Assembly: GCA_964620555.1 (NCBI GenBank)
Contig: CAZUGZ010000001.1
Location: 13,667 to 77,666 of the forward strand
Length of the DNA: 64,000 nt
Direction of reading: 5' to 3'
DNA from: an uncultured Alteromonadaceae bacterium
Lineage (GTDB): Bacteria; Pseudomonadota; Gammaproteobacteria; Pseudomonadales; Halieaceae
Below the pieces are notes generated by a model that searched no databases, was not told where the DNA came from, and saw only the letters and a list, made by a program, of their open reading frames with translations. Positions 6,189-41,201 of this stretch are shown here, in pieces. Position 1 is the first letter of the stretch. Every line of letters begins with the position of its first letter. The position numbers and the translations under genes were made by a program.

Positions 6189-6198
6189 CTCCCGATTC

Positions 6199-6980: not shown

Positions 6981-6986
6981 GGCCTT

Positions 6987-8634: not shown

Positions 8635-8638
8635 CACT

Positions 8639-12463: not shown

Positions 12464-13417
12464 CTATGCTCCGCCTCTGCGTGGCCTCGAGGAGCAGTCC
12501 TTGGGCCAGCGCCGCTTCAGGCACATCCATTGCTCGGGAGCTTCGCGGATCCACTGCTCGAAATGGCGATTGACCAGGGTCGTCATGGCAATCGCCTGGG
12601 ACCGGATATCCGCCTCGGGATCGGGATTGTCGATGGGGTCGTGGACGCGAATGAAAAAGCGACCTGGTTCCAGGCGCCCGGCACGAACGGGAATCAGCGC
12701 CGCACCGGTTTTCAGCGCCAGCCGGGCAGCGCTGATATTGGTGTACGCATCGACTCCGAAGAAGGGAATTGGCTGACCGCTGTCGAGCCGGGTATCCGTG
12801 GCCAGGCCGATGCTGTTACCCGCCGTCAACTCCCGATAAAGCGGCCTGACCCCCTCTTCCGAAGCGACCAGTTTGCTACCGAAACTGGTCCGCAGGCGTA
12901 GCAAATGTCGCTGCAGGAAGGCATTGGATTCGGCCGCGTACACGGTACTGACGGTCATTCCATACTGGCGGAAAATCAGGTTGGTCAGTTGCCAGGCGCC
13001 GACGTGAGCGGTGACGAACACGTTGGCTCTGCCCGGTTGCAGGCGGCTGCGGGCAGCCGGGGAGACTTCGAACTCGATGCGCTGTTTGCGCTCTCGCCAG
13101 ATCTGGGGCAGCTTGACCAGTTCCGCCGTGGCGACCCCGAGATAGCCGAAGGTCTGGCGACACAACTGCCGGATGTGGCGTTCACCGGCTTCGGGATAGA
13201 TGACCCGCAGATTGCGCTTTACTGCCTTGGCCTTGTTGCTGAACGGGCCCAGACAGCGGAACACTGCGGCGGCGAGGGAGGCGGCACGTTCCGGCGAAAG
13301 GCGCCCGAGCAGTCGAAACACCAGGCCCACGCAGCACGCTTCCAGTTTTTGCGTCATCCGTCCAAGTGCCGGGGCCGCCCTGGCCAGGCGCTTGGGAACC
13401 AGGTAGAACTCAGCCAC
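12464..13417 (-). CDS. LpxL/HtrB-family lipid acyltransferase (Lip_A_acyltrans), copy 1
   Basis: VFVTAHVGAWQL (H-x4-type acyltransferase motif region), GLATDTRLDSGQPIPFFG, PEQWMCLKRRW (the family's C-terminal W..RRW). GTG at 13417 overlaps the hydroxylase stop by 8 nt. An alternative ATG is at 13357. Confidence 0.75.
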   Translation of the reverse strand: MAEFYLVPKRLARAAPALGRMTQKLEACCVGLVFRLLGRLSPERAASLAAAVFRCLGPFSNKAKAVKRNLRVIYPEAGERHIRQLCRQTFGYLGVATAELVKLPQIWRERKQRIEFEVSPAARSRLQPGRANVFVTAHVGAWQLTNLIFRQYGMTVSTVYAAESNAFLQRHLLRLRTSFGSKLVASEEGVRPLYRELTAGNSIGLATDTRLDSGQPIPFFGVDAYTNISAARLALKTGAALIPVRAGRLEPGRFFIRVHDPIDNPDPEADIRSQAIAMTTLVNRHFEQWIREAPEQWMCLKRRWPKDCSSRPRRGGA

Positions 13418-14024
13418 TGGGGCTGCCGGTACTGCGAAACACCAGGTCCCAGAGTGGGGAACTGACGCCGTAGCGTGCCTTCTCTCCCGAGTAGTGATGC
13501 TTGAGGTGATGTCGCTTGAGATAGGCGGCAATCGGGTTGCGCATGGGAAAGTGGTGAACGCCGTAGTGTATGTAGTCGTAGCACAGGTAGCCGGCGATAA
13601 AGAAGGCAAACAGGGGTTGCAGCCAGGGTTGTGGCACCGCCAGCGAAAACAGGTAATAGAGGGCGAGCATGATGGGTATGGAACCGCTGGGAGGCATCAC
13701 CAGGCGAGTCTTGTCCCTGGGGTCCTGGTGATGATTGCCGTGGAACAGGAACACCAGCCACTTGCCGGGTTTGCTCCTGGCGGGAAAGTGAAAGGCGAAA
13801 CGGTGAAGCAGGTATTCGGTGAGGGTCCACAATAGTAGCCCGGCGATGGCGCACCCGAGGATTCCGGTTGCCGGTAGCAGCTCCACGGCGATGCTGCGCC
13901 CCAACAGAAAGCCGGCGATGGGTGACCACAGGAGCAGGGGCACCAGCGGGTGTACGTGGGTCAGGCTTTCGAGAAAATCGTTCTCGAACAGGCGGATGGA
14001 TCGATGTTCCGGGTTAGCCTGCAT
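13410..14024 (-). CDS. Fatty-acid hydroxylase superfamily (sterol desaturase-like) membrane di-iron enzyme
   Basis: 204 aa, hydrophobic. Histidine boxes LLHRFAFH, FHGNHHQDP, HYGVHH, HHLKHHY. Confidence 0.75.
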   Translation of the reverse strand: MQANPEHRSIRLFENDFLESLTHVHPLVPLLLWSPIAGFLLGRSIAVELLPATGILGCAIAGLLLWTLTEYLLHRFAFHFPARSKPGKWLVFLFHGNHHQDPRDKTRLVMPPSGSIPIMLALYYLFSLAVPQPWLQPLFAFFIAGYLCYDYIHYGVHHFPMRNPIAAYLKRHHLKHHYSGEKARYGVSSPLWDLVFRSTGSPSG

Positions 14025-14991
14025 GGCCGTCTGCCTCCACAGGTGATCGCTGGTCGCCCGCTCCGGGCGCGGTTCCCGGCCAGATTCGCTGTGGGCAGAA
14101 CCAGGCCTCCGGGGCCTCGCTGATCCAACTCTGAAAGTGGTGGTGGAGTTGCGCCGTCATGTCCCGGGCCCGTTGATTTTCGTCGCCATGCCCCTCCGTG
14201 GCAAGTACCGGAGCATGAAAAGTGACTCGAAACTCGGCATCCCGGAGCCTCTGCACCTGGGTCGGGATCAGGTCCAGACAGAATTTCAGGGCCAATTTTG
14301 CCGGCAACAGGCTACTGGGCTTGGGTATGCCGAAAAAGGGAATTTCGGTGCCGCCATCCAGTCGCCGGTCGATGACCACGGCCACGGAGCGGCCGCTTTG
14401 CAGGTTTCGTACCATTCCCCGGGCGGCACGCTGGCGGGGCACCAGTTCGCAGTTCATTTGCCGCCTGGACTCAAACAGCATCCGCTCCAGCAGTGGATTG
14501 GACGGGGGAGTATACAGCGCCATACTGGGGATGCTAAGCCGATTCAGGGCGCAAATGATCAACTCCCAATTGCTTTGGTGGGCGCCTACAAAAATTGCCG
14601 GCCGTTGCCGGTCGCCCTCGCCAATCCACCGGATATGCAGCCGCTCCCGGTCCCTGGAGTCGACGATGGTACGGAAGTGGGGATATTCCGCCAACACCCG
14701 CCCCCCATTGCCCCAGCCCGCAGTAACCAACTGCTCGAGTGCGGCCGCGGACCGCTGGGGAAACGCCCGTGACAGATTTTCACGATACACGGCAGTCTTG
14801 TGCTTCAGCCGACGCCCCACCACTCGGCCCAGGTGCCAGCCGAGTCGCGAGGCGCGGTCCACCGGCAGCAGGGCGAACAGCTTGACCAGCAGCCATACCA
14901 GGACAAAGTCGAGACGCCACAGAAATTTCTGCAGACCCGGGTAACGTGTTGCGGTCTTGCCAATTGCATGGCCGATGAGGAACTGTGCCAC
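14014..14991 (-). CDS. LpxL/HtrB-family lipid acyltransferase, copy 2
   Basis: GTG start, 325 aa. N-terminal membrane anchor (FVLVWLLVKLFALLP), IFVGAHQSNWEL, VVIDRRLDGGTEIPFFG, PEAWFCPQRIW. 11-nt overlap with the hydroxylase start. Confidence 0.75.
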   Translation of the reverse strand: MAQFLIGHAIGKTATRYPGLQKFLWRLDFVLVWLLVKLFALLPVDRASRLGWHLGRVVGRRLKHKTAVYRENLSRAFPQRSAAALEQLVTAGWGNGGRVLAEYPHFRTIVDSRDRERLHIRWIGEGDRQRPAIFVGAHQSNWELIICALNRLSIPSMALYTPPSNPLLERMLFESRRQMNCELVPRQRAARGMVRNLQSGRSVAVVIDRRLDGGTEIPFFGIPKPSSLLPAKLALKFCLDLIPTQVQRLRDAEFRVTFHAPVLATEGHGDENQRARDMTAQLHHHFQSWISEAPEAWFCPQRIWPGTAPGAGDQRSPVEADGHAG

Positions 14992-15004: not shown

Positions 15005-15946
15005 TCAGCCCCGTGCTGTCCGCAGATTCTTCAAACCCCGGGCCAGGGAGATCGAGGGCCGCCATTCAATCTTCGCCTGGATTTCCCGGTTATCCACCAC
15101 CCAATCCGGGTATCGCAGTTCGCGCAACTTGGCGGGAGTCAGCATCGGTGCGTAATGCAGTTGGCGCGCCAGTTTCAGGTTGGTCCAGGCCAGCAGGTCC
15201 AGCAGTTGTGCCGGCAGACGCAGCAGGCGCACCCGGCGACTCTCGACCTGTGCTGCCACCGTGGCCAACTCGTGCCAGTCGTATCCTTCCGCCCGGTCGT
15301 CCGCCAGGCTCAGTATCTGCCGGGGCAGGGCCTCGGCATCCACCAGCAGCACCAGGGCCCGCACCAGGTCGGCAACGTGCAGCAGTGAGAAGCGATTTGC
15401 GGGAGCGCAGGGTATGGGCAGCAAGCCGTGTGCCAGCCAGCGGAAAATCGGTGTCAGTTCCCGGTCCCCGGGGCCGTAGACCGGCGGCGGGCGCAGTATG
15501 GTCCATTCCAGTTGGTCGGCCTGCTCCTGTACGAGCCGTTCCGCCCGCTGTTTGCTGGACGCATACCAGGATAGTTGCGGCTGCCGGGCCGCCAGTGTAG
15601 ACAGCATGATCAACCGGGGGGATGGTTGTCGCTGCTGCAGGGCGGTCAGCAAACGGGAGGTTCCCTGGAGATTGGTGCGGTCGAATTCCGCCTGGCTGGC
15701 ACCGCGTACCGCCCCGGCACAATGGACAACTGTCCCGGCATTTTCCAGCAGTTGCGACAGCGCCTGCGGGGCAGCCAGGTCACCGACCACCAGGCTGGCG
15801 CCGGCCGCCTCCAGTTCCCGGGCGGCATCGGGGTCGCGCACCAGCACCCGCAGTGAGCTGCCACTGCCGAGCAGGGAGTTGCAAAGATGAAAGCCGATGA
15901 ATCCGGTTGCGCCGGTAACCGCAACCAATTGAGCAGACGAATTCAA
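15005..15946 (-). CDS. NAD(P)-dependent epimerase/dehydratase-fold reductase, CerR-like candidate
   Basis: 313 aa (TTG start, exact start uncertain). Rossmann motif VAVTGATGFIGFHL and YASSK (catalytic Y-x3-K). Starts 3 nt after the acyl-AMP ligase stop. Confidence 0.75.
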   Translation of the reverse strand: MNSSAQLVAVTGATGFIGFHLCNSLLGSGSSLRVLVRDPDAARELEAAGASLVVGDLAAPQALSQLLENAGTVVHCAGAVRGASQAEFDRTNLQGTSRLLTALQQRQPSPRLIMLSTLAARQPQLSWYASSKQRAERLVQEQADQLEWTILRPPPVYGPGDRELTPIFRWLAHGLLPIPCAPANRFSLLHVADLVRALVLLVDAEALPRQILSLADDRAEGYDWHELATVAAQVESRRVRLLRLPAQLLDLLAWTNLKLARQLHYAPMLTPAKLRELRYPDWVVDNREIQAKIEWRPSISLARGLKNLRTARG

Positions 15947-15949
15947 GGC

Positions 15950-17878
15950 TCAGGCCGAGGCGACCTTGAGTTCCCTCTCTCCGCTGCGGACAGTGCCGTC
16001 CTCGCCGCCCTGGGCTGCGATGAAATCCAGGCGCGCCTTGGCCCGCGATAATTTGCCGGATGAAGTCTTCGGCAGGGAACGCACCGGCACCAGTTCCACG
16101 TGGCAGTCCAGGCTCAACTCCATGCGGATCAGGGCGCGCAGACGACGTATCAGGTTGTTGCGCAGTTTGGCATCGGATTCCCGGCACTGCACCAGCAATA
16201 CGCATTGTTCATCACCGTTGGTATTGGGTGTGGAGAATGCCAGGGCGTCGTTGCGGCGCACTTCGGGCTGGGTCTCGGCGATGTGCTCGAGGTCCTGGGG
16301 CCAGATGTTGCGCCCGTGGATGATGATCAGGTCTTTCTTGCGACCGGTGATGGTCAGAATGCCGTCCACCAGGTAGCCGTAATCGCCGGTATTGAGCCAG
16401 CCGTCCTCGCTCAGCACCTCGCTGGTTTCTTCCGGCAGGTTGTAATAGCCGGACATGACACTGGGGCCGCGCAAATGCACCACACCACTGTGCCAATCGG
16501 CCAGCGGTTGGCCCTGGTCATCGCGAATTTCAATTTCGAAACTGGGCAGGGGTTTGCCACAGTTGACGAAATGGCGGCCCCGTCCACCCGGCAGGTGTTC
16601 TTCCAGCAGCAGCGCCCGATGGTGGTCGGCCAGGTGGTCGCTGTCGATATAGTGAGTGGAATAGGTTTTGTCCAGGGGTGAAAAGCTGACGCCGAGCGTA
16701 CATTCCGCCATACCGTAACAGGCGGTGAAGGCGCGTGGGTCGAAACCCACTGGTTGCAGCGTGTCGGCAAAGTGCTTCAGGGTCTGGGGATGGATCATTT
16801 CGGCACCGATGCCGGCGACCCGCCAGTGGCGCAGGTCGTATTGTTCGATATCCTGGGGACGCAGACGGCGGGTTACCAGGTCGTAACCGAAAGAGGGCGC
16901 AAAGGAGATGGTTGCCTTGCTGAGCGTCATCAGCCTCAACCACTGGCGCGGGCGCAAGGCAAACTCGCGGGTATCCAGGAAATCGATGGAGAGCTGGGTT
17001 GCCGTGGGCGTCAGCACAAAACCCACCAATCCCATATCGTGGTAGAAGGGCAGCCAGGACATCATCCGGTCTCCCTCCTCCAGGGCCAGACCGTGCTGCG
17101 CTATTCCCTGAAGGTTGGCCAGTACCGTGCGGTGTTTGATGACGGTACCGCGGGGGAAACGGGTGCTGCCGGAGGTGTACTGAATGTAGGATATGTCTTC
17201 CGCACTCGGTGTGGGCAGGGTCAATTCTGTTGTGGGCAATTGCTGGAAAGCCGCGGGCTGATCCACCATGAGCAGGTTCAAATCCGCGCAGGCCTCCCGC
17301 AAAATCGTCAGGTACCCCTCGGAGGCAACCGCCACCGAAGCTTCACTGGCCTTCAACAAACGCCGCAATTGTTGCGTGTAGACATTCTGGCTGCCCATAT
17401 TGATGGTGGCGGGCAGCGAGACCGGGATCAGGCAGGCATACTGGCAGGCATAGAAAAATTTCAGGAAATCCGGCGTCGTCTCAGCCACCAGCCCGACCCG
17501 GTCGCCCGGACTCAGGCCGAGGCCCAGCAGCTTGCGGGCCAGTTCTCGCGCTGCTTCACGCAGTTCGAAATAGGTCAAAACAGTCTGCAGCTTGCCGCGG
17601 CCACTGTAGAAATTGGCGCCGGTTTCGCCTTGCGCAGCGTAATCCAGCGCCTCGGCCAGGGTGACAAAGTCAGCCGGCCGGCGGGCGAGATCATGGGAAG
17701 TCGGTGTGGCGAGTACGGTAGTGGGTTCTGAATGCAAAACTGGTTCCCCGGAAATTTGATAGGTAGATGCTGCCAACCCGGCCCAGGCTGCGTCGCGTGG
17801 TCGTTTCCCTCTGCGGACGCTGCTGGACAATCGGATAGTACCAAAATCGGAAGTGGTCCCTGTAGGTAATAATACCAA
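15950..17878 (-). CDS. Fatty acyl-AMP ligase / acyl-ACP synthetase-type adenylating enzyme
   Basis: Motifs YIQYTSGSTRFPRGTVIKH (A3), FYHDMGL, ACYGMAE, NTGDYGY, ITGRKKDLIIIHGRNIWPQDLE, SSGKLSR (A10). N-terminus uncertain: ATG 17878 gives a low-complexity leader, and TTG 17737 is an alternative. Confidence 0.85.
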   Translation of the reverse strand: MVLLPTGTTSDFGTIRLSSSVRRGKRPRDAAWAGLAASTYQISGEPVLHSEPTTVLATPTSHDLARRPADFVTLAEALDYAAQGETGANFYSGRGKLQTVLTYFELREAARELARKLLGLGLSPGDRVGLVAETTPDFLKFFYACQYACLIPVSLPATINMGSQNVYTQQLRRLLKASEASVAVASEGYLTILREACADLNLLMVDQPAAFQQLPTTELTLPTPSAEDISYIQYTSGSTRFPRGTVIKHRTVLANLQGIAQHGLALEEGDRMMSWLPFYHDMGLVGFVLTPTATQLSIDFLDTREFALRPRQWLRLMTLSKATISFAPSFGYDLVTRRLRPQDIEQYDLRHWRVAGIGAEMIHPQTLKHFADTLQPVGFDPRAFTACYGMAECTLGVSFSPLDKTYSTHYIDSDHLADHHRALLLEEHLPGGRGRHFVNCGKPLPSFEIEIRDDQGQPLADWHSGVVHLRGPSVMSGYYNLPEETSEVLSEDGWLNTGDYGYLVDGILTITGRKKDLIIIHGRNIWPQDLEHIAETQPEVRRNDALAFSTPNTNGDEQCVLLVQCRESDAKLRNNLIRRLRALIRMELSLDCHVELVPVRSLPKTSSGKLSRAKARLDFIAAQGGEDGTVRSGERELKVASA

Positions 17879-17979
17879 GGAACTGGGGAAATTTGCCTAT
17901 ATTATTGAGGTCTTTCCAATTTCATTCGTTACAGCCCCTTCGCGGGCCGGGGACGGCTGGAAATTGATGTTTCAATCGC

Positions 17980-17985
17980 TATACT
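17980..17985 (+). promoter_or_regulatory. Possible -10 element (TATACT) for the bCerS-like operon
   Basis: TATACT lies 40 nt upstream of GTG 18026 in the 147-bp divergent intergenic region. No convincing -35 element. Confidence 0.25.
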
Positions 17986-18025
17986 GCCCGGTCGCGTCGA
18001 GTCTGTCTACCGGAGTTTTTCCCCT

Positions 18026-19171
18026 GTGTCCAAGGTAGCAAGCCATTCCCTGACCCTGTTGCCGGTCGACGATGCGGCTACCCTGCGGCAATTCATTCGC
18101 GTTCCCCATCGCGTGTACCGGGATGACCCCAATTGGATTGCGCCACTGAATTTTCAGGAAAAACATCGTTTCAGCCCGGCTCGTCCCTTTTTTGAGCACG
18201 CCCGCTGGCGGGGCTGGGTGGTGCTTGGCGACGGCCGGCCACTGGGCCGGATCAGTGCCCAGGTGGATGATCTTCATCAACAGCGCTATCGGGACCATAC
18301 CGGCAGCTTCGGCATGCTGGAGGCGATAGACGACCCCGAGGTGTTTCAACTGCTGTTCGAGGCCGCGCAGAACTGGCTGCGCGAACAGGGCATGCGGCGG
18401 GTGCGTGGCCCCTTCAACCTGACCATCAACGAGGAGGTGGGTATGCTGGTGGAAGGCCTGCAGTACCCGCCCTGTTTTTTGATGGGACACGGTCGTACCT
18501 ATTACGACCTCAGGGTCAGGGACCAGGGCTTCGCCAAGTGCAAGGATGTGCTGGCCTTCCGCATCAATCCGGATTTTGAGGCACCACCGGTAATGACGAA
18601 GCTGGCGCAACGTGCGTCGCGAAAAGTCAGCGTACGGCCGCTGAACCGGAGCCGGCTGGCCCAGGACACCGAAATCATGCGCACCATTTTCAATGACGCC
18701 TGGCAGCACAACTGGGGTTTTGTGCCCTTTACCGACAACGAGTTCAGTGACCTGGTAAAGTCCCTGATCCTGGTGTTGCCCGAAGACTATGTGCAAATCG
18801 CCACCTATGAAGGTCGGCCGGCTGCCTTCATCGTCATGCTGCCCAACCTCAACGAGGCCATACGGGGCCTGCGCGGGCGCGTTTTTCCCCTGGGATGGCT
18901 CACCATACTGTGGCGCTTCAAGGTTCGTGGCCTGCGCTCCGGGCGGGTACCCCTGATGGGTGTGTGCCAGGAATTCCAGAATTCTCCAGCGGGTCCGGTC
19001 ATGGCCTTTCTGGTGATCGATGCCGTGCGCAAGCGGGCCGCCGCACGGGGTATGGTGGAAACCGAAATGGGCTGGGTGCTGGAAGACAACCAGGCCATGT
19101 GCAATATCATCGAGACCATTGGGGGCGAGGCCTACAAGCGCTATCGAATCTACGAGAAGGAGCTGGACTGA
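18026..19171 (+). CDS. GNAT-fold N-acyltransferase, candidate bacterial ceramide synthase (bCerS-like)
   Basis: GTG start, 381 aa. LRQFIRVPHRVYRDDPNWIAPL, GRISAQVDD, FGMLEA, VRGPFNLTINEEVGMLVEG, WQHNWGFVPFTDNEF, MGWVLEDNQAM...YKRYRIYEKEL. Family assignment is by pattern memory. The functional call rests on the genomic context. Confidence 0.55.
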   Translation: MSKVASHSLTLLPVDDAATLRQFIRVPHRVYRDDPNWIAPLNFQEKHRFSPARPFFEHARWRGWVVLGDGRPLGRISAQVDDLHQQRYRDHTGSFGMLEAIDDPEVFQLLFEAAQNWLREQGMRRVRGPFNLTINEEVGMLVEGLQYPPCFLMGHGRTYYDLRVRDQGFAKCKDVLAFRINPDFEAPPVMTKLAQRASRKVSVRPLNRSRLAQDTEIMRTIFNDAWQHNWGFVPFTDNEFSDLVKSLILVLPEDYVQIATYEGRPAAFIVMLPNLNEAIRGLRGRVFPLGWLTILWRFKVRGLRSGRVPLMGVCQEFQNSPAGPVMAFLVIDAVRKRAAARGMVETEMGWVLEDNQAMCNIIETIGGEAYKRYRIYEKELD

Positions 19172-19175
19172 GACC

Positions 19176-19997
19176 GTGCAACTGGACCCGAAATCAAACC
19201 GCCTGTCGGCCATAGTGCTGGCCGGGGACCGAACCAAAGCCGATTCGCTGATCGCCCATTCCGGGGTCCCTTGCAAAGCACTGATCGATGTCGATGGCAC
19301 TCCCATGGTGCATCGGGTGATCAATGCCCTGAGGAGTTCCCAACTGGTCAATGGCATCCTGTTGTCCGGCCCGGAACGCGAGGAACTTGCCGGCGATGCC
19401 ACGCTGAGCGACTGGGTTGAACGGGGCGAAGTAGCCTGGCATTCGCCGCTGCATACTCCCAGTACCAGTGCCTTTGCCGCGCTGCAATCCCTGCCCAGGG
19501 AGGCCCCGGTATTGCTTACCACTGCGGACCACCCCCTGCTCAGCAAGGAAATCATCGATGCCTACGGCCGCCAGAGTCTGACGGATGACGTGGATGTAAC
19601 TGTGGCTCTGGCCCCCTACGCGCTGGTGCGGGAGGCCTATCCCGGCATGAAAAAGACAGTCCTCCGCTTCAGCGACGGCGAGTTCTGCGGCTGCAACCTG
19701 TTCGCCTTCCTCACTCCGGAGGGTCGCCGGGTCGCCCATTTCTGGCAAAAGATTGAACAGCAGCGCAAGAAGCCGCTGGCGCTGATTGCCCTGTTGGGCT
19801 GGTGGCCCCTGCTGCGCTATCACTTCGGCCTGCTGCCGCTGGAGGAGGCCCTGGCGAAGTTGAGCAAGCGTCTGGGTTTGCGGCTGCGCGCGATCATCCT
19901 GCCCTACGCCAATGCGGCGGTGGACGTGGATTCGATTTCCGACCTGATGATGGTGCGTGGTTCCTTCGAAAAACTGACTGGCGAGCAACGTCTGTAG
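19176..19997 (+). CDS. MobA-like nucleotidyltransferase-fold protein (NTP_transf_3-like)
   Basis: GTG start 4 nt after the preceding stop, about 273 aa. AIVLAGDRTKADSL...PCKALIDVDGTPMVHRV resembles the LAGG-x-SxR-hydrophobic...K.L..hydrophobic.G.phi-hydrophobic N-terminal NTP-binding pattern. TTADHPLL. Confidence 0.6.
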   Translation: MQLDPKSNRLSAIVLAGDRTKADSLIAHSGVPCKALIDVDGTPMVHRVINALRSSQLVNGILLSGPEREELAGDATLSDWVERGEVAWHSPLHTPSTSAFAALQSLPREAPVLLTTADHPLLSKEIIDAYGRQSLTDDVDVTVALAPYALVREAYPGMKKTVLRFSDGEFCGCNLFAFLTPEGRRVAHFWQKIEQQRKKPLALIALLGWWPLLRYHFGLLPLEEALAKLSKRLGLRLRAIILPYANAAVDVDSISDLMMVRGSFEKLTGEQRL

Positions 19998-20010
19998 ACG
20001 ACGACCCCGC

Positions 20011-21261
20011 TCAAACGCGGCGGATGTCGGCTCCCAGACTGGCCAGCTTGGCGTCGATATTGGCGTAACCCCGGTCCAGGTGGTAGACGCGGTCAATGGC
20101 GCTTTGGCCATCGGCAGCCAGCGCCGCGATGATCAGCGAGGCGGAGGCACGCAGGTCGGTGGCCATTACCGGCGCGCCCTGTAACCGGTCGCGGCCGCGG
20201 ATGACGGCGGTGTGCCCCTGCAGTTCGATGTCCGCACCCATGCGCTGCAGTTCGGCGACGTGCATGAAGCGGTTCTCGAAGATGTTTTCGACGATGGTGG
20301 CGGTGCCCTCGGCCACTGCGTTCAGTGCCATGAACTGGGCCTGCATGTCGGTGGGGAAAGCTGGATAGGGAGCGGTGCTGATGCTGACTGCCCGTGGACG
20401 GCGACCGTGGCTTTGCAGGCGCACCCAGTCTTCCCCCTGCGTCAATTCGGCGCCACTGGCCCTCAGTTTGTCCAGTACGAAGCCCAGATGCGCGGGTTGC
20501 GTCCGGCGAATGGTGACGTCGCCACGGGTGGCGGCCGCCGCGGCCAGGAAAGTGCCGCTCTCGATGCGGTCCGGCGGCACTCGATGGCGGGCCGCATGCA
20601 GTTGCCTGCGCCCGGAAATGCTCAGTGTACTGGTGCCGATTCCCGCGATCTTGCTGCCCATGGCATTCAGCATGGTGGCGAGGTTACCGACTTCCGGTTC
20701 CAGCGCGGCATTCTCGATGGTGGTATCGCCCTGCGCCAGGCTGGCCGCCATCATCAGATTCTCGGTGGCGGTTACCGAGGGCATGGTGAGGCGAATGCTG
20801 GCCCCCTGCAGACGCCGGCACCTGGCTTTGATATAGCCGCCCTCTATCTCGATCTCGGCGCCCATGCGCTGGAGACCTGAGATGTGTTCGTTTACCGGGC
20901 GGGAACCGATGGCACAGCCCCCGGGCAGGGAGACCACCGCTTCACCGAAGCGGGCCAGCAGCGGGCCCAGCAACAGAATCGAACCGCGCATGGTGCGGAC
21001 CAGTTCATAGGGTGCCCGTAGCGAATGAACTCCCGCCGCGTCGACGTCGAGTTGGTCGCCATCCCGTTCCAGGGTGCATCCCAGCAGTTCCAGCAATTCC
21101 AGCGCGGTGCTGATGTCCCGTACCTGGGGAATATTGCTGATGGTGACCGGTTCCGCACTGAGCAGGGTGGCGGCGATGGTGGGCAGGGCGGCATTCTTGG
21201 CGCCGGCGATGGTAGTTTCCCCGAGCAGTGGTTCGCTGCCGCCGACGAGCAATTTTTCCAT
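20011..21261 (-). CDS. murA: UDP-N-acetylglucosamine 1-carboxyvinyltransferase homologue (enolpyruvyl transferase, MurA family)
   Basis: Start MEKLLVGG at 21261, about 416 aa. Collinear with E. coli MurA along its full length: GAKNAALP (Lys22), [12 protein letters not shown] (catalytic Cys115/Arg120), PDRIESGTF (Asp305), [24 protein letters not shown] (Arg397), HLDRGY. 1-nt overlap (TGATG) with the Spt stop. Confidence 0.9.
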
Positions 21262-22463
21262 CAGGCGACCCGTCTGGCGCGGATCAGATCGGAATCCAGC
21301 AAGCCTGCGTAGGCCCCGATGATGTGCTCGATCTGCTCGGGATTGTGGGCGGCACTCAGGCTGCAACGCAGCAGGCAGGTGGTGGAGGGAGAGGCGGGGG
21401 GAATTACCAGGTTGACGTACACCCCGGATTGCATGAGCGCATTCCAGCATTGGATGGCCTGATCCCGGCTGTCCAGTTCCACCGCCACCACCGGGCTCGG
21501 GGTCGGGCCCAGTTTCAGGCCCAGGGCCTGCAGACTGTCGTAGAGTCGGTGCGAGTACTCCCACAGGCGGGTGCGCAGCTCCGGTTCCTGGCGCACAATT
21601 TTCAGTGCCTCGCGGGTCGAGGCCACCACCGAGGGAGCGGAGGAAGCAGTGAAGATGTAGGCCCCTATGCAATAGCGGATACTCTCGAGCTGTGAATGTC
21701 GACTGACACAGTAGCCGCCGGTACCGCCCAGGCTCTTGCTGAAGGTGCCGACCGTGAAATCCACATCGGCCTCGATTCCAGCGGCTTCACTGGCACCGCG
21801 ACCCAACTCGCCCAGCACTCCCAGGGAGTGCGCCTCATCCACCATCAGGTAGCCACCGTATTGCCGTTTGACCGCGGCTATCTCCTGCAGCGGCGCGGTA
21901 TCTCCCAGCATACTGTAAATGCCCTCGACCACGATCAGGGTGTCGTCGGCGCGTTCGCCGAGGCGCCGCAGGCGCTTGGCGAGATCCTGGGGATCGTTGT
22001 GCTTGAAGCGGATGATATCGGCTCCGCTGAGTTTTACCCCGGCATAAATGCTTGCGTGGCTGTCGGCATCCAGCAGGATGACGTCGCCCGGGCCCGCCAG
22101 GGTGGCACACATGCCCATGGTGGAAGAGTAGCCGGTAGTAAAGCAGATGGCGTGGTCAACCCCGTGGAATTCGGCCAGTTCCCGTTCCAGCAACTCGTGC
22201 TCCAGGAAGGAACCATTGGCCACCCGGGACCCGGTGGTGCCGGTGCCCCAGCGTTCGGCGGCGGCCTGGGCCGCGGCGATACAGCGGGGATGCCAGGCCA
22301 GGCCCAGGTAGTTGTTACTGCCCGCCAGGATGACCCGAAAGCCGCCGACCATGCCTTCCGTGGCGGACAACAGGCGCTCGGTAACGGCGCCAAAGGGCTT
22401 GACTTCACGCTCGGCCAGTTGCCGCTGAAACTCGATCATGGATTGGAATTTGTCGAACAGCAT
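21261..22463 (-). CDS. spt: Alpha-oxoamine synthase, serine palmitoyltransferase-like
   Basis: 400 aa PLP enzyme. [20 protein letters not shown]-lysine motif [14 protein letters not shown] associate the TFSKS form with Spt; BioF/Kbl typically have G-K-A. A dedicated ACP gene lies 5 nt upstream. Confidence 0.75.
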
Positions 22464-22468
22464 GGGCT

Positions 22469-22711
22469 TCAGTCCTGCAGTTCCCCCAGCTTGGTGGCGA
22501 GTTGGCCGATAGTGCTGATGGCGGGAAGAATATTCAAGGGGATGGATAGATCGAACTCATCTTCTATCTGCTCGATGAATTCCATTACCTCCAGTGAACT
22601 CATGCCGAGGTCGCCGACCAGTTCGGTGGTCTCCGACAAGCCCGGTTCCGGGGTCTGCGCGGACCCGAGCTGGCGGTAGATGAAGTCCAGGTATTGCTGG
22701 TAGTTCGCCAT
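22469..22711 (-). CDS. Acyl carrier protein (dedicated)
   Basis: 80 aa from MANYQQYLDF. Phosphopantetheine site region GDLGMSSLEVMEFIEQIEDEF. Confidence 0.8.
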   Translation of the reverse strand: MANYQQYLDFIYRQLGSAQTPEPGLSETTELVGDLGMSSLEVMEFIEQIEDEFDLSIPLNILPAISTIGQLATKLGELQD

Positions 22712-22850: not shown

Positions 22851-23936
22851 ATGCCAATACCAGTAGTCTGGGTGATCGACGCCTACCGGGCCGGAGAACG
22901 CAGCCAGGTGCTGGCGCTGGCAGAGGCGCTGGACTGGCCATTTGCGGTGAAGCGTCTGCGCTATCGAAAATACGAGTTCGCGACCAATATTCTGCAGCGC
23001 AGCGACCTGCGTGGGATTCGCCGCGCAACTTCCGATGCGCTGGCGGCGCCCTGGCCGGACCTGGTGATTTCTTCGGGGCTGCGCAATGAGGCGGTATGCC
23101 GGTGGATCAGAAACCAGTCCGGCGGCGCCACGCGCATCGTCCACGTGGGTAACCCCTGGGCTGATCCGGCGCGCTTTGATCTGGTGATTACCACTCCCCA
23201 ATACCGTATCCCGGTGCGTGACAACGTGCTGCAAAACCGTTTGACCCTGAACGCGGTCAGCCGGGATCGATTGCGCGCTGAAGCGGCTGTCTGGGAGCCG
23301 CGCTACCGCGATTTGCCCACTCCCTACACTACCGTGGCGGTGGGCGGCAACAGCGGCCCCTTCACCTTCGGCAAGCGCGCTGCCGCCCGTCTGGCACGGC
23401 AGGTCAACCAGTTGGTGCGGCACAGCGGCGGTTCGGCCCTGGTGACCACCAGTGCGCGCACCTCCGCCGCTGCCGCCGCAGTGCTGCAGGCCGGGTTACA
23501 GGTGCCCAACCACTACCACCGGTGGCGCGCGGACGACCCGGCCAATCCCTACTTTGGCATGTTGGCAGTGGCCTCACAATTGGTGGTAACCGGTGACAGC
23601 ATCGGTATGATTTCGGAAGCCTGCGCCACCGGCAAACCGGTGTACCTGTTTGACCTGGGCCGCGGCATGCTGGCCATGGAGGACGCCGCCGACGGAGCGT
23701 GGTACGAAAACGACTGGCGTGTGGGCGGGGTACTCTACCGCCTGTTGATGCGCCTGCTGTGGCGCAAGCTGAGCCGTGATATCCGCCTGGTTCACAGACC
23801 CCTGGTGGCGCAGCGGCGCGTGGCCTGGCTGGGCAAACCGGCACCTTCACCAGCCCACACCGACGCCGACATGGACTCGGCAGTGGCCGCAGTGCGGAAT
23901 TTATTTGCCGATTTCCCCCGCCTCGACCGACACTAG
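22851..23936 (+). CDS. ELM1/DUF1022-family putative glycosyltransferase, paralogue 1
   Basis: Start MPIPVVWVI. PWPDLVISSGLRNE, HVGNPWADPARFDLVITTPQY, VAVGGNSGPF, LVTTSARTS, NPYFGMLAVASQLVVTGDSIGMISEACATGKPVYLFDL. The 3' end overlaps the convergent ABC exporter by 36 nt. Confidence 0.75.
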   Translation: MPIPVVWVIDAYRAGERSQVLALAEALDWPFAVKRLRYRKYEFATNILQRSDLRGIRRATSDALAAPWPDLVISSGLRNEAVCRWIRNQSGGATRIVHVGNPWADPARFDLVITTPQYRIPVRDNVLQNRLTLNAVSRDRLRAEAAVWEPRYRDLPTPYTTVAVGGNSGPFTFGKRAAARLARQVNQLVRHSGGSALVTTSARTSAAAAAVLQAGLQVPNHYHRWRADDPANPYFGMLAVASQLVVTGDSIGMISEACATGKPVYLFDLGRGMLAMEDAADGAWYENDWRVGGVLYRLLMRLLWRKLSRDIRLVHRPLVAQRRVAWLGKPAPSPAHTDADMDSAVAAVRNLFADFPRLDRH

Positions 23937-25640
23937 TTCGGCGCCACCGGCTTCCAGGCGGTAGACCCGGTCTGCCGCTTCCATCATCGAGCGATTGTGG
24001 GTGATGGCGAGTATGGTCAGTTGTCCCTTGAGACTCTCCAGGGTACGCCGCACCGCCGCTTCGCTGTCGGCATCCAGGGCGCTGGTGGCTTCGTCGAGTA
24101 TCAACAGTTGCGGCCGATTGATCAGCGCCCTGGCGATGGCGATGCGCTGGCGCTGACCACCCGACAGTTTGCCGCCGCCTTCCCCCACCATGGTGGCACA
24201 GCCCTGGGGCAGGGGTTCGATGAATTGCCAGGCACCGGCCGCTCGCAGTGCCTGTTCCACGTCGCCGGCATCGAGTGCGGGATCGCCCAGGGTGACATTG
24301 TGCTCGATAGTGTCGTGCAGCAACACGGTTTCCTGGGGCACGTAACCGATCAGGCTGCGCCAGGCCCGGATGTCCAGTTCTCCCAGCGCGGTACCATCCA
24401 CCGCCACCGTCCCGGAATCCGGTTGTATCAAACCGATGGCGAGATCGATGAGACTGGTCTTGCCGACACCCGAGGCGCCCACCAGGGTGGTGAGTCGGCC
24501 CGCCTCCAGGTACAGATTCAGATTCGCAAATACCTGCCGCCGATCGTAACTGAGGTCGATGGCGGAGAAGGAGACGCCTCGCTTCAGGCTCGGGGTGGCG
24601 CCACCAAACAGATGTTCCCGCTCCTGCTCCGCGGCTTCGACCGATTCCAGCATCGCCCAATAGGCGCTTTCGCCCTGGGCCAGCTTCTGGTACTGCTTCT
24701 GCACTTTGCCGAGGAAGGCAAAACCACGCCCCAGGGTCAGTACCAGTACCATCACCGTGGGCAAATCCATGGTGAACAGTTGCAGGGCGGCGTAAATTCC
24801 GAGCGCGATGAAAACCGCGAACAGAAATTCCTGGGCGCCGTCCAGTACCGCACCGCTGAGCACTGCCTTGCGCAACGCCTTGTTGAGTCGCAGCGTGTCC
24901 CCGGCCAGGGCCCGGTCCGCCAGGTGCTCCCGGGCCATGGCCTTGAGCGGTTTGACCGATTGCAGGGTGTCGGTCAGGTTGGCCATCAGGGAAGTGAGCA
25001 GCTTGGTCTGGCGCTTGCCGGCCCGGCGCGTGATGCGGACCAGGAAGTGTGAGCACAGCATGACCAGGGCACCCGCCGCCACCGCCGCCAGGCTGGCACT
25101 CCAGGACACCGCAAACGCCACCCCTCCGTACACCGAGGCCTGCACCAGGTAGGTCAGGGCGGTGGCGCCGTGGACGAAAGAAGCGGATGCGCGCTGGGCC
25201 TCCGTGGCCAGGGAATTGGTCAACTTGCCGATCGGTTGGTGCAGGAAATACTTCCATTTGCTGCGCATTACCGCCCGCAACATTCGCAGCCGCAGGTCGG
25301 TGCCGACCTGGGCGGCGGTGTAGCCCACCTGGCGGTTGGCGACGATTAGCAGCAGGCTTTTCAGCAGCACCATGAGGACGATGATCAACAACAGGTTGAC
25401 CAGGCTGGGGTCGATATCCATGCGCCCCAACAGTTCCAGTACCTGGCGTTCGAAATCGTTTTGCATGGCGCTGTCCGGCAAGCCCGCGGCGCTACTGGCC
25501 TGGGACCCCAGTGCCACGTTCAGCAGCGGCAGCAGGGCGGACAAACCCAGGCCTTCCATCAATCCGGACAACAGCAGCGCCATCAGCATCAGCACGGTTT
25601 GCAGTGGGTAGGCAGAGAAAAAACTCAGCATCAACCGCAT
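23901..25640 (-). CDS. ABC exporter, fused TMD-NBD half-transporter (MsbA-like lipid flippase family)
   Basis: 579 aa. Six predicted TM helices, Walker A GASGVGKTS, signature LSGGQRQRIAIARAL, Walker B LLILDEATSALD. Confidence 0.9.
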   Translation of the reverse strand: MRLMLSFFSAYPLQTVLMLMALLLSGLMEGLGLSALLPLLNVALGSQASSAAGLPDSAMQNDFERQVLELLGRMDIDPSLVNLLLIIVLMVLLKSLLLIVANRQVGYTAAQVGTDLRLRMLRAVMRSKWKYFLHQPIGKLTNSLATEAQRASASFVHGATALTYLVQASVYGGVAFAVSWSASLAAVAAGALVMLCSHFLVRITRRAGKRQTKLLTSLMANLTDTLQSVKPLKAMAREHLADRALAGDTLRLNKALRKAVLSGAVLDGAQEFLFAVFIALGIYAALQLFTMDLPTVMVLVLTLGRGFAFLGKVQKQYQKLAQGESAYWAMLESVEAAEQEREHLFGGATPSLKRGVSFSAIDLSYDRRQVFANLNLYLEAGRLTTLVGASGVGKTSLIDLAIGLIQPDSGTVAVDGTALGELDIRAWRSLIGYVPQETVLLHDTIEHNVTLGDPALDAGDVEQALRAAGAWQFIEPLPQGCATMVGEGGGKLSGGQRQRIAIARALINRPQLLILDEATSALDADSEAAVRRTLESLKGQLTILAITHNRSMMEAADRVYRLEAGGAELVSVEAGEIGK

Positions 25641-25691: not shown

Positions 25692-26765
25692 TCACCAGCG
25701 CATGGAGAGCAGCGACAGGCCGGCGCACAGCAGCACGAAGAGTATCGGGATGGATGCCGTAAGCTGCGGGCTGAGCTGGGCCATTTGCCCCAACGCCCAG
25801 ATGATCTGGGTGGCCATGAAAAACCCCACGCCAATCAGCGCTCCCAGCGCCAGCCGGATACCGATGACCGGTCCGCGCTGGGTACTGACGATGGCGCTCA
25901 TGGGGATGGCCAGCAGTACCATTGCGGCCACCGCCAGGGGCAGGGTCGCCCGTTGCCAGAAGTTCATGGCGTGGGCCGCGTAGGGTTGCCGGTTGCGCTT
26001 GAGGTAGGCGATGTACTCTCCCAGTACCGACAGCCGGATGCTGTCGCTGCTAAGCGACAGGGTAGGTAACTCGGCGGGTGACCAGAGGTTGTCGATTTCC
26101 ACTTCCCGCCGCAGGGTGGTGACCAGTTCACCGTCCTGCAACCGCTTTTGCCTGACCTGCTGGAACTGCCAGCGGCGATCCTCGCTGACGCTGGCGCTGG
26201 ATGCCTCCAGCGCCAGCAGCAGGCGTCCCTGGTCATCGAATTGAAACAGACTGATGGCGCCGGGCTGGTGCCCCTTGCCCATGGCGCCCAGGTGAATAAA
26301 GCGCTGCTCCTGCCGGGACCATACTCCGCCGTCGGGCAGCAGTTCGGGAAGCTCGTTGCGGGCGGCGGATTTCATTTGCTGGGCAGACTGAAAGAGTACG
26401 GGCGAGATCAGTTCCGTCAGTATCCAGAGCACTGCCAATAGTCCGCCGGTGGGTAGTGCAATGGCTTTGAGCAGTGAACTTCGCGACACTCCGGATGCGC
26501 AAATGACGGTCAACTCATGGTGGCGGCCCAGCCCCGCCAGGGCCAGGATGGTACCCAGCAGGAAGATTACCGGCGCCAGCGCCAACAGGCGATTGGGCAG
26601 AGTCAGCAAGGCGAACTGAATGACCTGTGGGATCCCGTACCCGCCGTGAACGCGTTCCAGTTGTTCCATCAGGCCGATGATGGCAAACACCGTTCCCACT
26701 ACCAGCAGCGCCGACAGCCAGCCGCTGAGCAGACGGGTAGCGAGATAGCGGGTCAGGATCGTCAT
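25692..26765 (-). CDS. LptG-like permease (YjgP/YjgQ family)
   Basis: Start MTILTRYLATRLL at 26765 (ATGA overlap with the upstream gene), about 357 aa. Three TM segments, a periplasmic middle domain, then three TM segments. Confidence 0.8.
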   Translation of the reverse strand: MTILTRYLATRLLSGWLSALLVVGTVFAIIGLMEQLERVHGGYGIPQVIQFALLTLPNRLLALAPVIFLLGTILALAGLGRHHELTVICASGVSRSSLLKAIALPTGGLLAVLWILTELISPVLFQSAQQMKSAARNELPELLPDGGVWSRQEQRFIHLGAMGKGHQPGAISLFQFDDQGRLLLALEASSASVSEDRRWQFQQVRQKRLQDGELVTTLRREVEIDNLWSPAELPTLSLSSDSIRLSVLGEYIAYLKRNRQPYAAHAMNFWQRATLPLAVAAMVLLAIPMSAIVSTQRGPVIGIRLALGALIGVGFFMATQIIWALGQMAQLSPQLTASIPILFVLLCAGLSLLSMRW

Positions 26766-27829
26766 TCCGGGCCGGTTCCGGGCCGGCGCAACAGGTACAT
26801 CAATACCAGGAATATGAAGGCATAGGCGGACCACAATCCGGGAACCGTCGGTATGCGGCCCTGTTCGATAAAGGTTCGGGTGACGCTGGTGAGGCCGAAC
26901 AGGACCACGTAGAGAGCACTGGCCATAAAAAAACAACGCAATCGGGAATCTCCCGGGTTCGAGCGGCCCAGCGGCACCGCTACCAGGGCCAGCAGCAGGG
27001 TGGCCAGCGGCGTGGACAGGCGCCATTGATATTCGGCTATGTCCTTGGCCTGGTCGGATTGGCCCAGTTGCGCGGTAGTTTCCGCCTTGCGCCGGTAGTT
27101 GACCAGATCCTCGTCGTGTTCCATGTCAATTGTCAGATGGTCGAAACGAACGGTGATGTCCCGGGATGCCCGCCGATCCAGAAGGTAGTGATAACCGCGA
27201 TAAAAATGCGCGGTGAGCGCTGCTCCGGGGTTCAGTGCGGGCAGAGCGGCCTGCTCGGCAACGATGATTTCAGTACGCTGCTCGCGCGGGTGCTGCTGAT
27301 GCAGGAAGACGTTCTCGTGCAGGCCCTGTTCCAGGTCGATATCCTCGGCGATAAACAGGTAGTCGCTGTTGCCCATGTTAACGAATTTTCCGGTGGCCAT
27401 TTTTTTCAGGTCGAAGCGCGCCGCAGCTTCCGCCTCCAGGCGGTACATTTCGCGGTAGGCCCAGGGCCGGCCCTCGATGGAGATGAACCCGGTGATCACC
27501 GCCACCAGCAGCGAGAGCTGGAATACCGCTCCCAGTATGCGCCGGCGGCTGATTCCACAGGCGTGCAGAACATGCATTTCCGCGTCCCGGTGCAGCCTGC
27601 TGATGGCCGCCAGCACCGAAAAAAACAGTGCAGAGGGCATCAGAACCTCCAGGGTGACGAAGGTATTGAGGGCGACCAGGTTGAAGGCCGTGGCAAGATT
27701 CATTTGCCCCTGGGCGGCCAACTGAAGTTGCACCGTGGTCACGTAACCGACAAATATCAATACCAGCAAACCCAGGCCGCCGAGGAAGGGGCGCAGAATC
27801 TCGGCGTTGATATAGCGGTCGACAAGCAA
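26762..27829 (-). CDS. LptF-like permease (YjgP/YjgQ family)
   Basis: TTG start, 355 aa. (M)LVDRYINAEILRPFLGGLGLLVLIF, HACGIS (conserved LptF motif, compare E. coli MHACGLS), and a C-terminal three-TM bundle. Confidence 0.8.
   Translation of the reverse strand: MLVDRYINAEILRPFLGGLGLLVLIFVGYVTTVQLQLAAQGQMNLATAFNLVALNTFVTLEVLMPSALFFSVLAAISRLHRDAEMHVLHACGISRRRILGAVFQLSLLVAVITGFISIEGRPWAYREMYRLEAEAAARFDLKKMATGKFVNMGNSDYLFIAEDIDLEQGLHENVFLHQQHPREQRTEIIVAEQAALPALNPGAALTAHFYRGYHYLLDRRASRDITVRFDHLTIDMEHDEDLVNYRRKAETTAQLGQSDQAKDIAEYQWRLSTPLATLLLALVAVPLGRSNPGDSRLRCFFMASALYVVLFGLTSVTRTFIEQGRIPTVPGLWSAYAFIFLVLMYLLRRPGTGPE

Positions 27830-41110: not shown

Positions 41111-41201
<91 letters not shown>

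Follow-up and report, generated by a model that had tools for sequence, protein, structure and literature searches.

Does a member of the Halieaceae make ceramides, and what might it build on them? The question is raised by a group of genes in a 64,000-nucleotide stretch of contig CAZUGZ010000001.1 (assembly GCA_964620555.1, from an uncultured Alteromonadaceae bacterium that GTDB places in the Halieaceae), which was analysed over its whole length and is referred to here as the window. Five proteins encoded there correspond to the enzymes of the ceramide route of Caulobacter: a serine palmitoyltransferase (Spt), a dedicated acyl carrier protein (ACP) of AcpR type, an AasR-type acyl-ACP synthetase, a CerR-type reductase, and a bCerS-type N-acyltransferase. 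Judging from homology and gene order, we put the probability at roughly 85% that these constitute a complete Caulobacter-type dihydroceramide pathway and that the organism makes a ceramide-based lipid. The five genes are the core of a larger envelope-lipid island that spans about 12.4–30.1 kb of the window. Gammaproteobacteria are already known to carry the five-gene set, and it is common among them; what is new here is a Halieaceae member that carries it together with an uncharacterised accessory set, which hints at a distinct decorated sphingolipid.

The identity of the 400-residue pyridoxal phosphate (PLP) enzyme is central to this reading. Its fold and PLP motif are common to all α-oxoamine synthases, and the sequence GTFSKSLGG alone is not discriminating; Spt was distinguished from the other members by profile cut-offs and by a ranking of scores against solved structures in the PDB. 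The protein scores 574.8 bits on the NCBIfam serine palmitoyltransferase equivalog NF047599 (cut-off 500), and Spt is the only type of model that it passes, as it stays below the cut-offs for bioF (327 against 426), kbl (287 against 460), ALAS (222 against 339) and CqsA (200 against 428). The best solved relatives are the enzymes of Sphingomonas wittichii and S. paucimobilis, at 395 and 375 bits, which is about twice the score of any other enzyme (KBL 210, BioF 180, ALAS 180, cysteate acyltransferase 179 and CqsA 123 bits). In a full-length alignment we see that H159, D231, H234, the PLP lysine K265 and R390 (S. paucimobilis numbering) are all kept. By these measures the 400-residue enzyme is a serine palmitoyltransferase and not BioF, Kbl, HemA or CqsA. 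The original prediction, which was made from the DNA alone, had named a grouping with BioF, Kbl or CqsA as the result that would speak against it; the NCBIfam cut-offs and the PDB ranking both favour Spt.

The partner genes fit the same pathway. The ACP gene ends in a TGA stop that is followed by 5 nt and then the spt ATG, and an ACP gene directly upstream of spt has been described as a rule (PMC9386255). The small protein falls below every NCBIfam cut-off for the housekeeping carrier AcpP (best 39.9 bits against 70) and is, on its sequence, a dedicated AcpR-type ACP distinct from AcpP. On the fatty acyl-AMP ligase model NF006624 the ligase clears the cut-off of 600 bits; it was called at 595 residues in an independent assembly and is predicted to be a specialised AasR-type acyl-ACP synthetase with a putative role in the acylation of AcpR. 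Its TGA stop is followed after 3 nt by the TTG start of a Rossmann-fold short-chain dehydrogenase/reductase (SDR), which carries the motif GATGFIG at residues 12–18 and finds chains of the complex-I subunit NDUFA9 among its best PDB sequence matches. We assign this SDR to the CerR type because the same likeness to NDUFA9 has been published for Caulobacter CerR (PMC11087976).

The putative ceramide synthase gene is divergent from the ligase gene, with an intergenic region of about 290 bp. An Rfam scan of the window gave only a tRNA at 41114–41201, and no riboswitch or other RNA at the cluster. The AlphaFold model of the 381-residue protein has a predicted local distance difference test score (pLDDT) of 84.5 and a predicted TM-score (pTM) of 0.84, and its best Foldseek matches are tandem-GNAT N-acyltransferases (E about 1e-14). 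A protein search returned 5731 homologues, in which the named top matches came from Halieaceae, Halioglobus and metagenome-assembled genomes (MAGs) of Pseudomonadales. We consider the protein to be a likely bCerS-type N-acyltransferase, comparable with CCNA_01212 by way of the E. coli protein YghO and of synteny. The gene layout is as the original prediction described it, with the dedicated ACP 5 nt upstream of the GTFSKSLGG enzyme, the ligase 3 nt before the Rossmann protein, and the divergent GNAT-like gene whose product indeed matches tandem-GNAT structures. Its interval held all of these features but was drawn too tightly, and it passed over two genes that lie inside, murA and a counterpart of the Caulobacter nucleotidyltransferase CC_1153.

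The latter gene starts 4 nt after the bcerS stop and is translationally linked to it. Its conservation was followed in a genome scan for bCerS that used one genome per GTDB species and gave at least 579 confirmed loci; all synteny counts come from the best 80 of these, comprising 34 Halieaceae-type loci and 46 others. In 59 of the 71 loci that could be assessed, the nucleotidyltransferase gene comes directly 3' of bCerS in the same orientation, and it is present in 33 of the 46 non-Halieaceae loci. The corresponding CC_1154-CC_1153 adjacency is published for Caulobacter, Azotobacter vinelandii and Pseudomonas luteola, and the window reproduces this and the other synteny signatures reported for the three organisms, namely acp-spt, aasR-cerR, bcerS with a CC_1153-like gene, and LptF/G.

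The comparison was anchored on the Escherichia coli spt island, NCBIfam, the PDB and published identity tables. Searching E. coli genomes at the DNA level with the window spt brought up genes annotated "spt: serine palmitoyltransferase", which lie in an island found in E. coli B/BL21(DE3), O55:H7 and others. In O55:H7 (NC_017656.1, 3660440–3668218) a divergent yghO is followed by a fatty acyl-AMP ligase, an NAD-dependent epimerase, an ACP, spt and lptG-lptF, so that, as in the window, a bCerS homologue diverges from an acyl-AMP ligase and an SDR, an ACP, spt and an lptF/lptG pair (in E. coli a second one) are present; the epimerase/SDR is a pseudogene in the strain examined. Unlike in the window, aasR-cerR-acp-spt form one operon, a Wzx-like "LPS biosynthesis protein" takes the place of the ABC exporter discussed below, and no homologue of the nucleotidyltransferase, ELM1, DAGK or Tam41-like proteins turned up there. 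Full-length identities to the island are 52% for Spt, 47% for bCerS/YghO, 46% for AasR (45% by tblastn), 41% for the SDR and 36% for the ACP. Padilla-Gómez et al. (PMC9386255) found that Spt, AcpR and AasR from E. coli B share clades with their Caulobacter counterparts, and the case for a ceramide pathway stands because the window proteins match this island. Two points of annotation may be added: YghO, annotated without a function, is homologous over its full length (47% identity) to a bCerS-type ceramide synthase, and RefSeq names the LptF/G pair of the E. coli island simply "LPS export ABC transporter permease LptG/LptF".

In the scheme that we propose, the substrates, the head group and the route of export are all predictions, read from the family of each protein, its synteny and its phyletic spread. 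By homology to the Caulobacter enzymes, the AasR-type ligase would load a fatty acid onto AcpR at the expense of ATP, and Spt would join the acyl-AcpR with L-serine to give 3-ketosphinganine. The tandem-GNAT bCerS would then N-acylate 3-ketosphinganine, and the NDUFA9-like CerR would reduce the 3-keto group to yield dihydroceramide. The end product may be a hydroxylated ceramide bearing phosphate and/or sugar groups. The ABC exporter would flip it, and an LptB2F2G2-type machine would carry it on to the outer membrane. The product is probably a decorated phospho- or glyco-sphingolipid. The genes concerned are collected in Table 1.

Table 1. Positions in the window, strand and basis of assignment for the five ceramide genes and their accessory neighbours.
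Feature	Position	Strand	Basis
AcpR-type dedicated ACP, 80 aa	22469-22711	-	PF00550 at 1.3e-9; phosphopantetheine site in DLGMSSLE
Spt, 400 aa	21261-22463	-	NF047599 574.8 bits; GTFSKSLGG
AasR-type fatty acyl-AMP ligase / acyl-ACP synthetase (predicted), ~595 aa, start inferred	15950-~17737	-	NF006624 760 bits
CerR-type NAD(P)-dependent extended SDR, 313 aa, TTG start	15005-15946	-	PF01370 + PF13460
bCerS-type N-acyltransferase (likely), tandem GNAT, 381 aa	18026-19171	+	predicted structure; YghO homology
MobA/CofC-like nucleotidyltransferase, CC_1153 counterpart, 273 aa, GTG start	19176-19997	+	PF12804 at 1.2e-11
Canonical murA, 416 aa	20011-21261	-	TIGR01072 564 bits
Membrane fatty-acid/sphingolipid hydroxylase family protein, 204 aa	13410-14024	-	PF04116 at 3.5e-20
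LpxL-like acyltransferase b (lipid A biosynthesis acyltransferase family)	14014-14991	-	PF03279 at 1.2e-40
LpxL-like acyltransferase a, ~297 aa, start inferred	12464-13357	-	PF03279 at 4.3e-38
ELM1/GtrOC1-family GT-B transferase a, 361 aa	22851-23936	+	PF06258 at 2e-62
ABC exporter, fused transmembrane and nucleotide-binding domains (TMD-NBD), 579 aa, non-MsbA, candidate sphingolipid flippase	23901-25640	-	PF00664 + PF00005
LptG paralogue, spt-linked type (probable)	25692-26765	-	TIGR04408 250.6 bits
LptF paralogue, spt-linked type (probable)	26762-27829	-	TIGR04407 263.8 bits
ELM1-family GT-B transferase b, start inferred	27947-29059	+	PF06258 at 5.4e-48
ELM1-family GT-B transferase c, start inferred, overlaps stop of b	29052-30143	+	PF06258 at 1.4e-53
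CpgB-like lipid (ceramide) kinase candidate, 316 aa, GGDG motif	45420-46370	-	PF00781 DAGK_cat at 1.8e-11
CpgC-like (Tam41/Mmp37-like) candidate, 311 aa	44488-45423	-	PF09139 E 0.051, below cut-off

A number of observations weigh against the ceramide assignment or against the role that we give to its neighbours. In the window Spt, Ile replaces the Arg378 of S. paucimobilis (residue ~354, in the PPATP loop), and the protein passes a "beta-proteobacterial" Spt model but scores 427 on the alpha-type model, short of the 670 required there. The bCerS-like protein matches nothing in Pfam or NCBIfam and has no curated family model. The link to CCNA_01212 and CCNA_01220-01223 is transitive, as it runs through E. 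coli, the identity tables and NCBIfam. In the library searched we found no paper linking Halieaceae, Halioglobus, Haliea or Congregibacter with sphingolipids, and no biochemical or lipidomic evidence of sphingolipids in any Halieaceae member. For the accessory genes, LpxL-like genes stand beside bCerS in only 2 of the 46 non-Halieaceae loci, LptF and LptG narrowly pass housekeeping models (263.8 against a cut-off of 230 on TIGR04407, and 250.6 against 240 on TIGR04408, respectively), and the LpxL-like and ELM1 genes could belong to the synthesis of lipopolysaccharide (LPS) or lipooligosaccharide (LOS). With regard to Arg378, the equivalent residue is Ile, Leu, Val or Met in 13 surveyed Spt homologues from beta- and gammaproteobacteria and Nitrospirales; this regular-expression survey (loci L034–L073) recovered only 13 homologues, none of them from a Halieaceae-type locus, and is no more than indicative. 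The lack of the Arg would appear to be a trait of the subfamily and suggests a subfamily-specific handling of the substrate carboxylate. Circumstantial support for a ceramide lipid comes from isolates of the OM60/NOR5 clade, in which major unidentified phospholipid and aminophospholipid spots are on record (PMC3679898).

The alternative that survives best accepts the ceramide genes as real and takes the LpxL-like pair, the three ELM1 genes, the ABC (ATP-binding cassette) exporter, LptF/G and murA as ordinary LPS and peptidoglycan neighbours, leaving the ceramide plain or decorated by unlinked genes. LptF and LptG do pass the NCBIfam cut-offs for LPS exporters, but the E. coli spt island has a second, non-housekeeping lptFG, and phmmer scores are higher against this pair than against housekeeping chains in the PDB. 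LptF gives 153 bits against its spt-linked E. coli counterpart, compared to 124 at best (5x5y) and 99 (6mhu) against PDB LptF chains, which we take to be those of P. aeruginosa and E. coli, respectively. LptG gives 142 bits against its counterpart and at most 115 against any housekeeping LptG in the PDB. Because of these higher scores (at 29-31% BLASTP identity to the E. coli pair) we read the window LptF/G as probably of the LptF2/G2 type, which Olea-Ozuna et al. proposed for sphingolipid export. The ABC exporter scores 236 bits on the MsbA model, far under its cut-off of 602, and clusters with bCerS/Spt in 24 Halieaceae-type loci.

The ELM1 and LpxL-like genes divide the evidence in a similar way. 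The ELM1 family (PF06258) belongs to the GT-B clan CL0113, and its Acinetobacter members, including GtrOC1, are predicted LOS outer-core glycosyltransferases (PMC4172580), which favours an LPS setting; in the library searched we found no paper that links ELM1 with sphingolipids. The structural model of ELM1 a (pLDDT 89.8) likewise finds GT-B glycosyltransferases in Foldseek, such as MurG, WaaG, GT4 and TarL. Against a mere LPS neighbourhood, ELM1-family proteins recur beside bCerS in 19 of the 46 non-Halieaceae loci, LptF/G in 16 and the ABC exporter in 10, across unrelated lineages and in varied orders. In fact, ELM1, ABC, LptFG, hydroxylase, DAGK-like and Tam41-like genes all co-cluster with bCerS in Nitrospirales, beta- and deltaproteobacteria and one Roseovarius. 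The LpxL-like proteins, rare as they are outside the Halieaceae, fall below every NCBIfam LpxL/LpxM cut-off (best scores 149.6 for a and 134.6 for b, against 273); LpxL-like a is kept in 28 Halieaceae-type loci, and the same triad of LpxL-like a, hydroxylase and LpxL-like b lies inside the Roseovarius ceramide locus. The PF04116 hydroxylase itself is found in 28 of the 34 Halieaceae-type and 9 of the 46 other loci, and presumably acts on ceramide. A canonical, housekeeping-like MurA and the presence of lptB and kdsD in the window, so that the organism probably makes LPS, remain in favour of ordinary neighbours. We consider that explanation rather unlikely, though it keeps a real chance of being right, and prefer to see the accessory genes as part of a ceramide-lipid island.

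The position of murA directly behind spt nevertheless calls for comment. Its ATG overlaps the spt stop (TGATG), so the two genes are translationally coupled. The protein passes TIGR01072 (cut-off 392.7 bits), has a Cys-type active site (GGCAIG), and finds its top PDB matches at about 500 bits in 6cn1, 6wfm and 5bq2, presumably Pseudomonas enzymes. In 22 Halieaceae-type loci murA follows spt, while some others do not have it there, and in the usual ibaG-murA-hisG slot (8314–9274, + strand) ibaG (8314–8634) here leads straight to hisG. murA is probably a relocated peptidoglycan housekeeping gene that happens to be co-transcribed, and not a member of the pathway. MurA as a pathway enzyme that supplies an enolpyruvyl head group was considered and ruled out, as the protein is a canonical Cys-type MurA that is missing from the cluster in some Halieaceae-type loci, and as the head-group enzyme CpgA carries a PgsA-type domain (Zik et al.). 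Between a MlaC-like gene and ibaG, ORF translations show a low-GC (0.53) islet at about 6100–8300 with a VapBC-like toxin-antitoxin pair, a second small putative pair (7349–7836) and part of a specificity subunit of a type I restriction-modification system. The islet has the look of mobile debris and is possibly the former site of murA.

Head-group chemistry is suggested by two genes that lie 22 kb further on and overlap by 4 nt. The first product carries INGGDGT, and CpgB has been described as a ceramide kinase with a DAGK/LCB5 domain and a GGDG motif (PMC10331486); homologues with 29-42% identity stand beside bCerS in 16 other loci. Homologues of the second (36-51% identity) adjoin a kinase homologue and bCerS in 18 loci, and CC_1161 (CpgC) has been described as Tam41-like. 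The two genes are candidate counterparts of CpgB and CpgC. A motif of the CDP-alcohol phosphatidyltransferase CpgA occurs beside or near the kinase-CpgC homologues in 10 bCerS loci, and the published order LptF2-LptG2-CpgA-CpgB-CpgC is found in Nitrospirales loci, among others. In the window, none of the six frames of the 64 kb contains the CpgA (CC_1159) motif DGx2ARx7-12Gx3Dx3D, and no PF01066 match was seen among the open reading frames (ORFs) scanned; cpgA could still sit elsewhere in the genome. At least three loci that lack CpgA have an ELM1-family gene directly after the CpgC-like gene. Because of this arrangement and of the missing motif, the head-group chemistry likely differs from that of Caulobacter CPG2.

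The kinase and CpgC-like genes form one overlapping operon with a gene for a secreted 286-residue protein, within a second envelope cluster at 41239–48255. This cluster also encodes a Wzy_C/O-antigen-ligase-like (WaaL-like) membrane protein (43284–44576), an FkbM methyltransferase (42258–43079), and two paralogous proteins of about 300 residues without Pfam match (41239–42159 and 47353–48255), which have homologues in several bCerS loci, that of Roseovarius among them.

Taken further, these observations allow a bolder proposal, which we put forward tentatively and think unlikely to hold as a whole: that Halieaceae, several other marine and soil gammaproteobacteria and a Roseovarius use ceramide as the anchor of an outer-membrane lipid that resembles LPS and has so far not been described. 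In this view the PF04116 enzyme would hydroxylate the ceramide and the two LpxL-like proteins would add further O-linked acyl chains, so that a multi-acyl lipid of acyloxyacyl type, similar to lipid A, would result. The CpgB-like kinase would next phosphorylate this lipid, and it would be lengthened by the GT-B transferases of the ELM1 family, whose genes take the position of the gene for the CDP-alcohol transferase CpgA. Export would fall to a dedicated ABC flippase and to LptF2/G2, and the WaaL/Wzy_C-like protein might cap the product with a polymer. If true, complex sphingolipids of bacteria would have a third architecture, next to the glycosphingolipids (GSL) of Sphingomonas and the CPG2 of Caulobacter, and bacterial ELM1-family proteins would gain their first assigned function outside LOS cores.

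How the cluster is distributed bears on where it came from. The original prediction rightly recognised a Caulobacter-type five-gene set and a ceramide-based lipid as its likely product, but its view that a complete set beside gamma-type genes is unusual was not borne out by published clusters or by our scan. Olea-Ozuna et al. (2024, PMC11324152) report conservation of the five genes across the alpha-, beta- and gammaproteobacteria, with contiguous clusters in A. vinelandii and P. luteola, and spt, acpR and aasR have been described in E. coli B (PMC9386255). The best 80 of the at least 579 loci are mostly gammaproteobacterial, with Halieaceae, Lysobacterales/Luteibacter/Rhodanobacter, Thiogranum, Porticoccus, Methylophaga, Sedimenticola and Wenzhouxiangellaceae, and the rest include betaproteobacteria, Nitrospirales, Desulfobacterota and one Roseovarius. 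The closest genome among the matches listed is a Halieaceae MAG at 75% identity, which places the host of the window in this family or very near to it.

Across the 34 Halieaceae-type loci, which include the cultured Halioglobus japonicus, Ca. Litorirhabdus singularis and Haliea sp. E17, one order is kept: LpxL-like, hydroxylase, LpxL-like, CerR, AasR / bCerS, nucleotidyltransferase / (MurA), Spt, ACP / ELM1 / ABC, LptG, LptF. The arrangement is not a chance juxtaposition, because the same genes recur in the same order and orientation in all of these loci; differently ordered clusters of the core genes are also found in many of the 46 loci from other classes and phyla. Median identities across the Halieaceae-type loci are 72% for Spt, 69% for AasR and 58% for bCerS, values similar to those of the housekeeping proteins MurA (71%) and ZapE (63%). 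GC content in the cluster (0.59-0.65) equals that of the flanks and the rest of the window, and GC skew is likewise indistinguishable. The island is family-wide and vertically inherited, and is not a recent import.

The opposite view, implied by the "gammaproteobacterial backbone" of the original prediction, is that the cluster is a genomic island recently acquired by horizontal transfer from an alphaproteobacterium. The similar gene set in a Roseovarius strain would suit such a transfer, as would the best NCBIfam match of the LpxL-like proteins, PRK06553 (NF005120), which we take to be an alphaproteobacterial-type LpxL; the window Spt, however, fits the beta/gamma-type NCBIfam model and not the alpha-type. 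Olea-Ozuna et al. suggest an alphaproteobacterial origin by horizontal transfer for the A. vinelandii and P. luteola clusters, but here the gene order is common to 34 loci of different Halieaceae species, and divergence parallels that of the embedded murA and the flanking zapE, so that any transfer must predate the radiation of the family. At the cluster edges no integrase, tRNA or repeat boundary was seen in the ORFs examined, and the sole mobile-looking island, with its toxin-antitoxin genes and low GC, lies outside the cluster at 6.1–8.3 kb. A recent transfer is highly improbable, and we reject it on GC content and family-wide synteny.

Least credible of all is that the 400-residue enzyme is another α-oxoamine synthase (BioF, Kbl, HemA, CqsA or cysteate acyltransferase) that makes a different amino-lipid or signal, such as a sulfonolipid or an α-hydroxyketone autoinducer: the shared fold and motif, the unconserved Arg378 and a sulfotransferase gene nearby (32282–33616) leave it a very slight chance, but the Spt model is passed (575 against 500) where the bioF, kbl, ALAS and CqsA models are not, the match to the cysteate acyltransferase structure reaches 179 bits and that to SPT 395, identity to the PGAP-annotated E. 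coli spt is 52%, the gene is flanked by the AcpR, AasR, CerR and bCerS partners found with Spt in published clusters, and the partner sets of the other enzymes (bioADC, tdh and cqsS) are not seen near it.

The same sulfotransferase gene (Sulfotransfer_3) belongs to a series at 30121–40167, directly downstream of ELM1 c, that also encodes a TonB-dependent receptor, an SDR, a CrtO/CrtI-like FAD oxidoreductase and a 1264-residue RND transporter of HAE3/MMPL type with weak similarity to HpnN. At the thresholds applied, none of these genes had a homologue in the bCerS loci that were compared; a putative role in lipid modification or export is possible. Elsewhere, a gene for a WS/DGAT (wax ester synthase/diacylglycerol acyltransferase) protein at 61242–62570 (+) points to a capacity for neutral-lipid storage that is unrelated to the ceramide locus.

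Halieaceae (OM60/NOR5) are abundant coastal marine bacteria, and a family-wide intact ceramide pathway predicts that they contribute sphingolipids to marine lipid pools, which is relevant to lipid-biomarker work. The pathway also offers a candidate identity for the unidentified lipid spots of OM60/NOR5 isolates. The accessory set, with ELM1 in place of CpgA, an ABC exporter for a Wzx-like flippase, and spt-linked LptF/G, offers a tractable route to new head-group chemistry, and bears on the way in which sphingolipids are brought to the outer membrane.

One of the known systems that come close to the window is the Caulobacter crescentus pathway (spt CCNA_01220, acpR 01221, cerR 01222, aasR/acps 01223 and bcerS 01212), with which it shares, by our assignments, the same five enzyme types. 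As in the Caulobacter CPG/CPG2 cluster CC_1152-CC_1168, acp and spt are adjacent, as are aasR and cerR, and a MobA/CofC-like nucleotidyltransferase gene (CC_1153) comes after bcerS; the window cluster also has probable LptF/G paralogues, and its candidate DAGK-domain kinase gene adjoins a candidate Tam41-like gene (compare CpgB/CpgC). The four-gene operon aasR-cerR-acpR-spt of Caulobacter is, however, split in two in the window, with bcerS and the nucleotidyltransferase gene between the halves; the CpgA/CC_1159 motif is found nowhere in the 64 kb, and the kinase/CpgC-like pair is 22 kb off. Counterparts of CC_1152 (PF00483), CC_1158, CC_1157, the Wzx-like flippase CC_1166 and LptC2 were not seen among the window ORFs scanned. 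Unlike Caulobacter, the window has three ELM1-family GT-B transferases, an ABC exporter, two LpxL-like proteins, a PF04116 hydroxylase and an embedded murA.

The clusters of A. vinelandii DJ (Avin_44240-44370) and P. luteola (FOB45_16280-16340) described by Olea-Ozuna et al. (2024) resemble the window in their gammaproteobacterial hosts and in holding the five ceramide genes with CC_1153-like, LptF2/G2, CpgB-like and CpgC-like genes, the last three kinds as candidates in the window, without CC_1166-1168. They are single contiguous blocks that include CpgA (CC_1159) and CC_1152 and are predicted to make CPG2, whereas the Halieaceae version lacks both and has ELM1, ABC, LpxL-like and hydroxylase genes instead. 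This comparison relies on the published descriptions, as the genomes of Caulobacter, Azotobacter and P. luteola were not among the 80 best loci. The Sphingomonas system shares with the window an Spt of the same Rhodobacteria type and a sphingolipid destined for the outer membrane. In sphingomonads, glycosphingolipids replace LPS (PMC11087976) and the genes are scattered over the genome (PMC11324152); the window organism, in contrast, has kept kdsD and lptB and therefore presumably still makes LPS alongside its predicted ceramide lipid.

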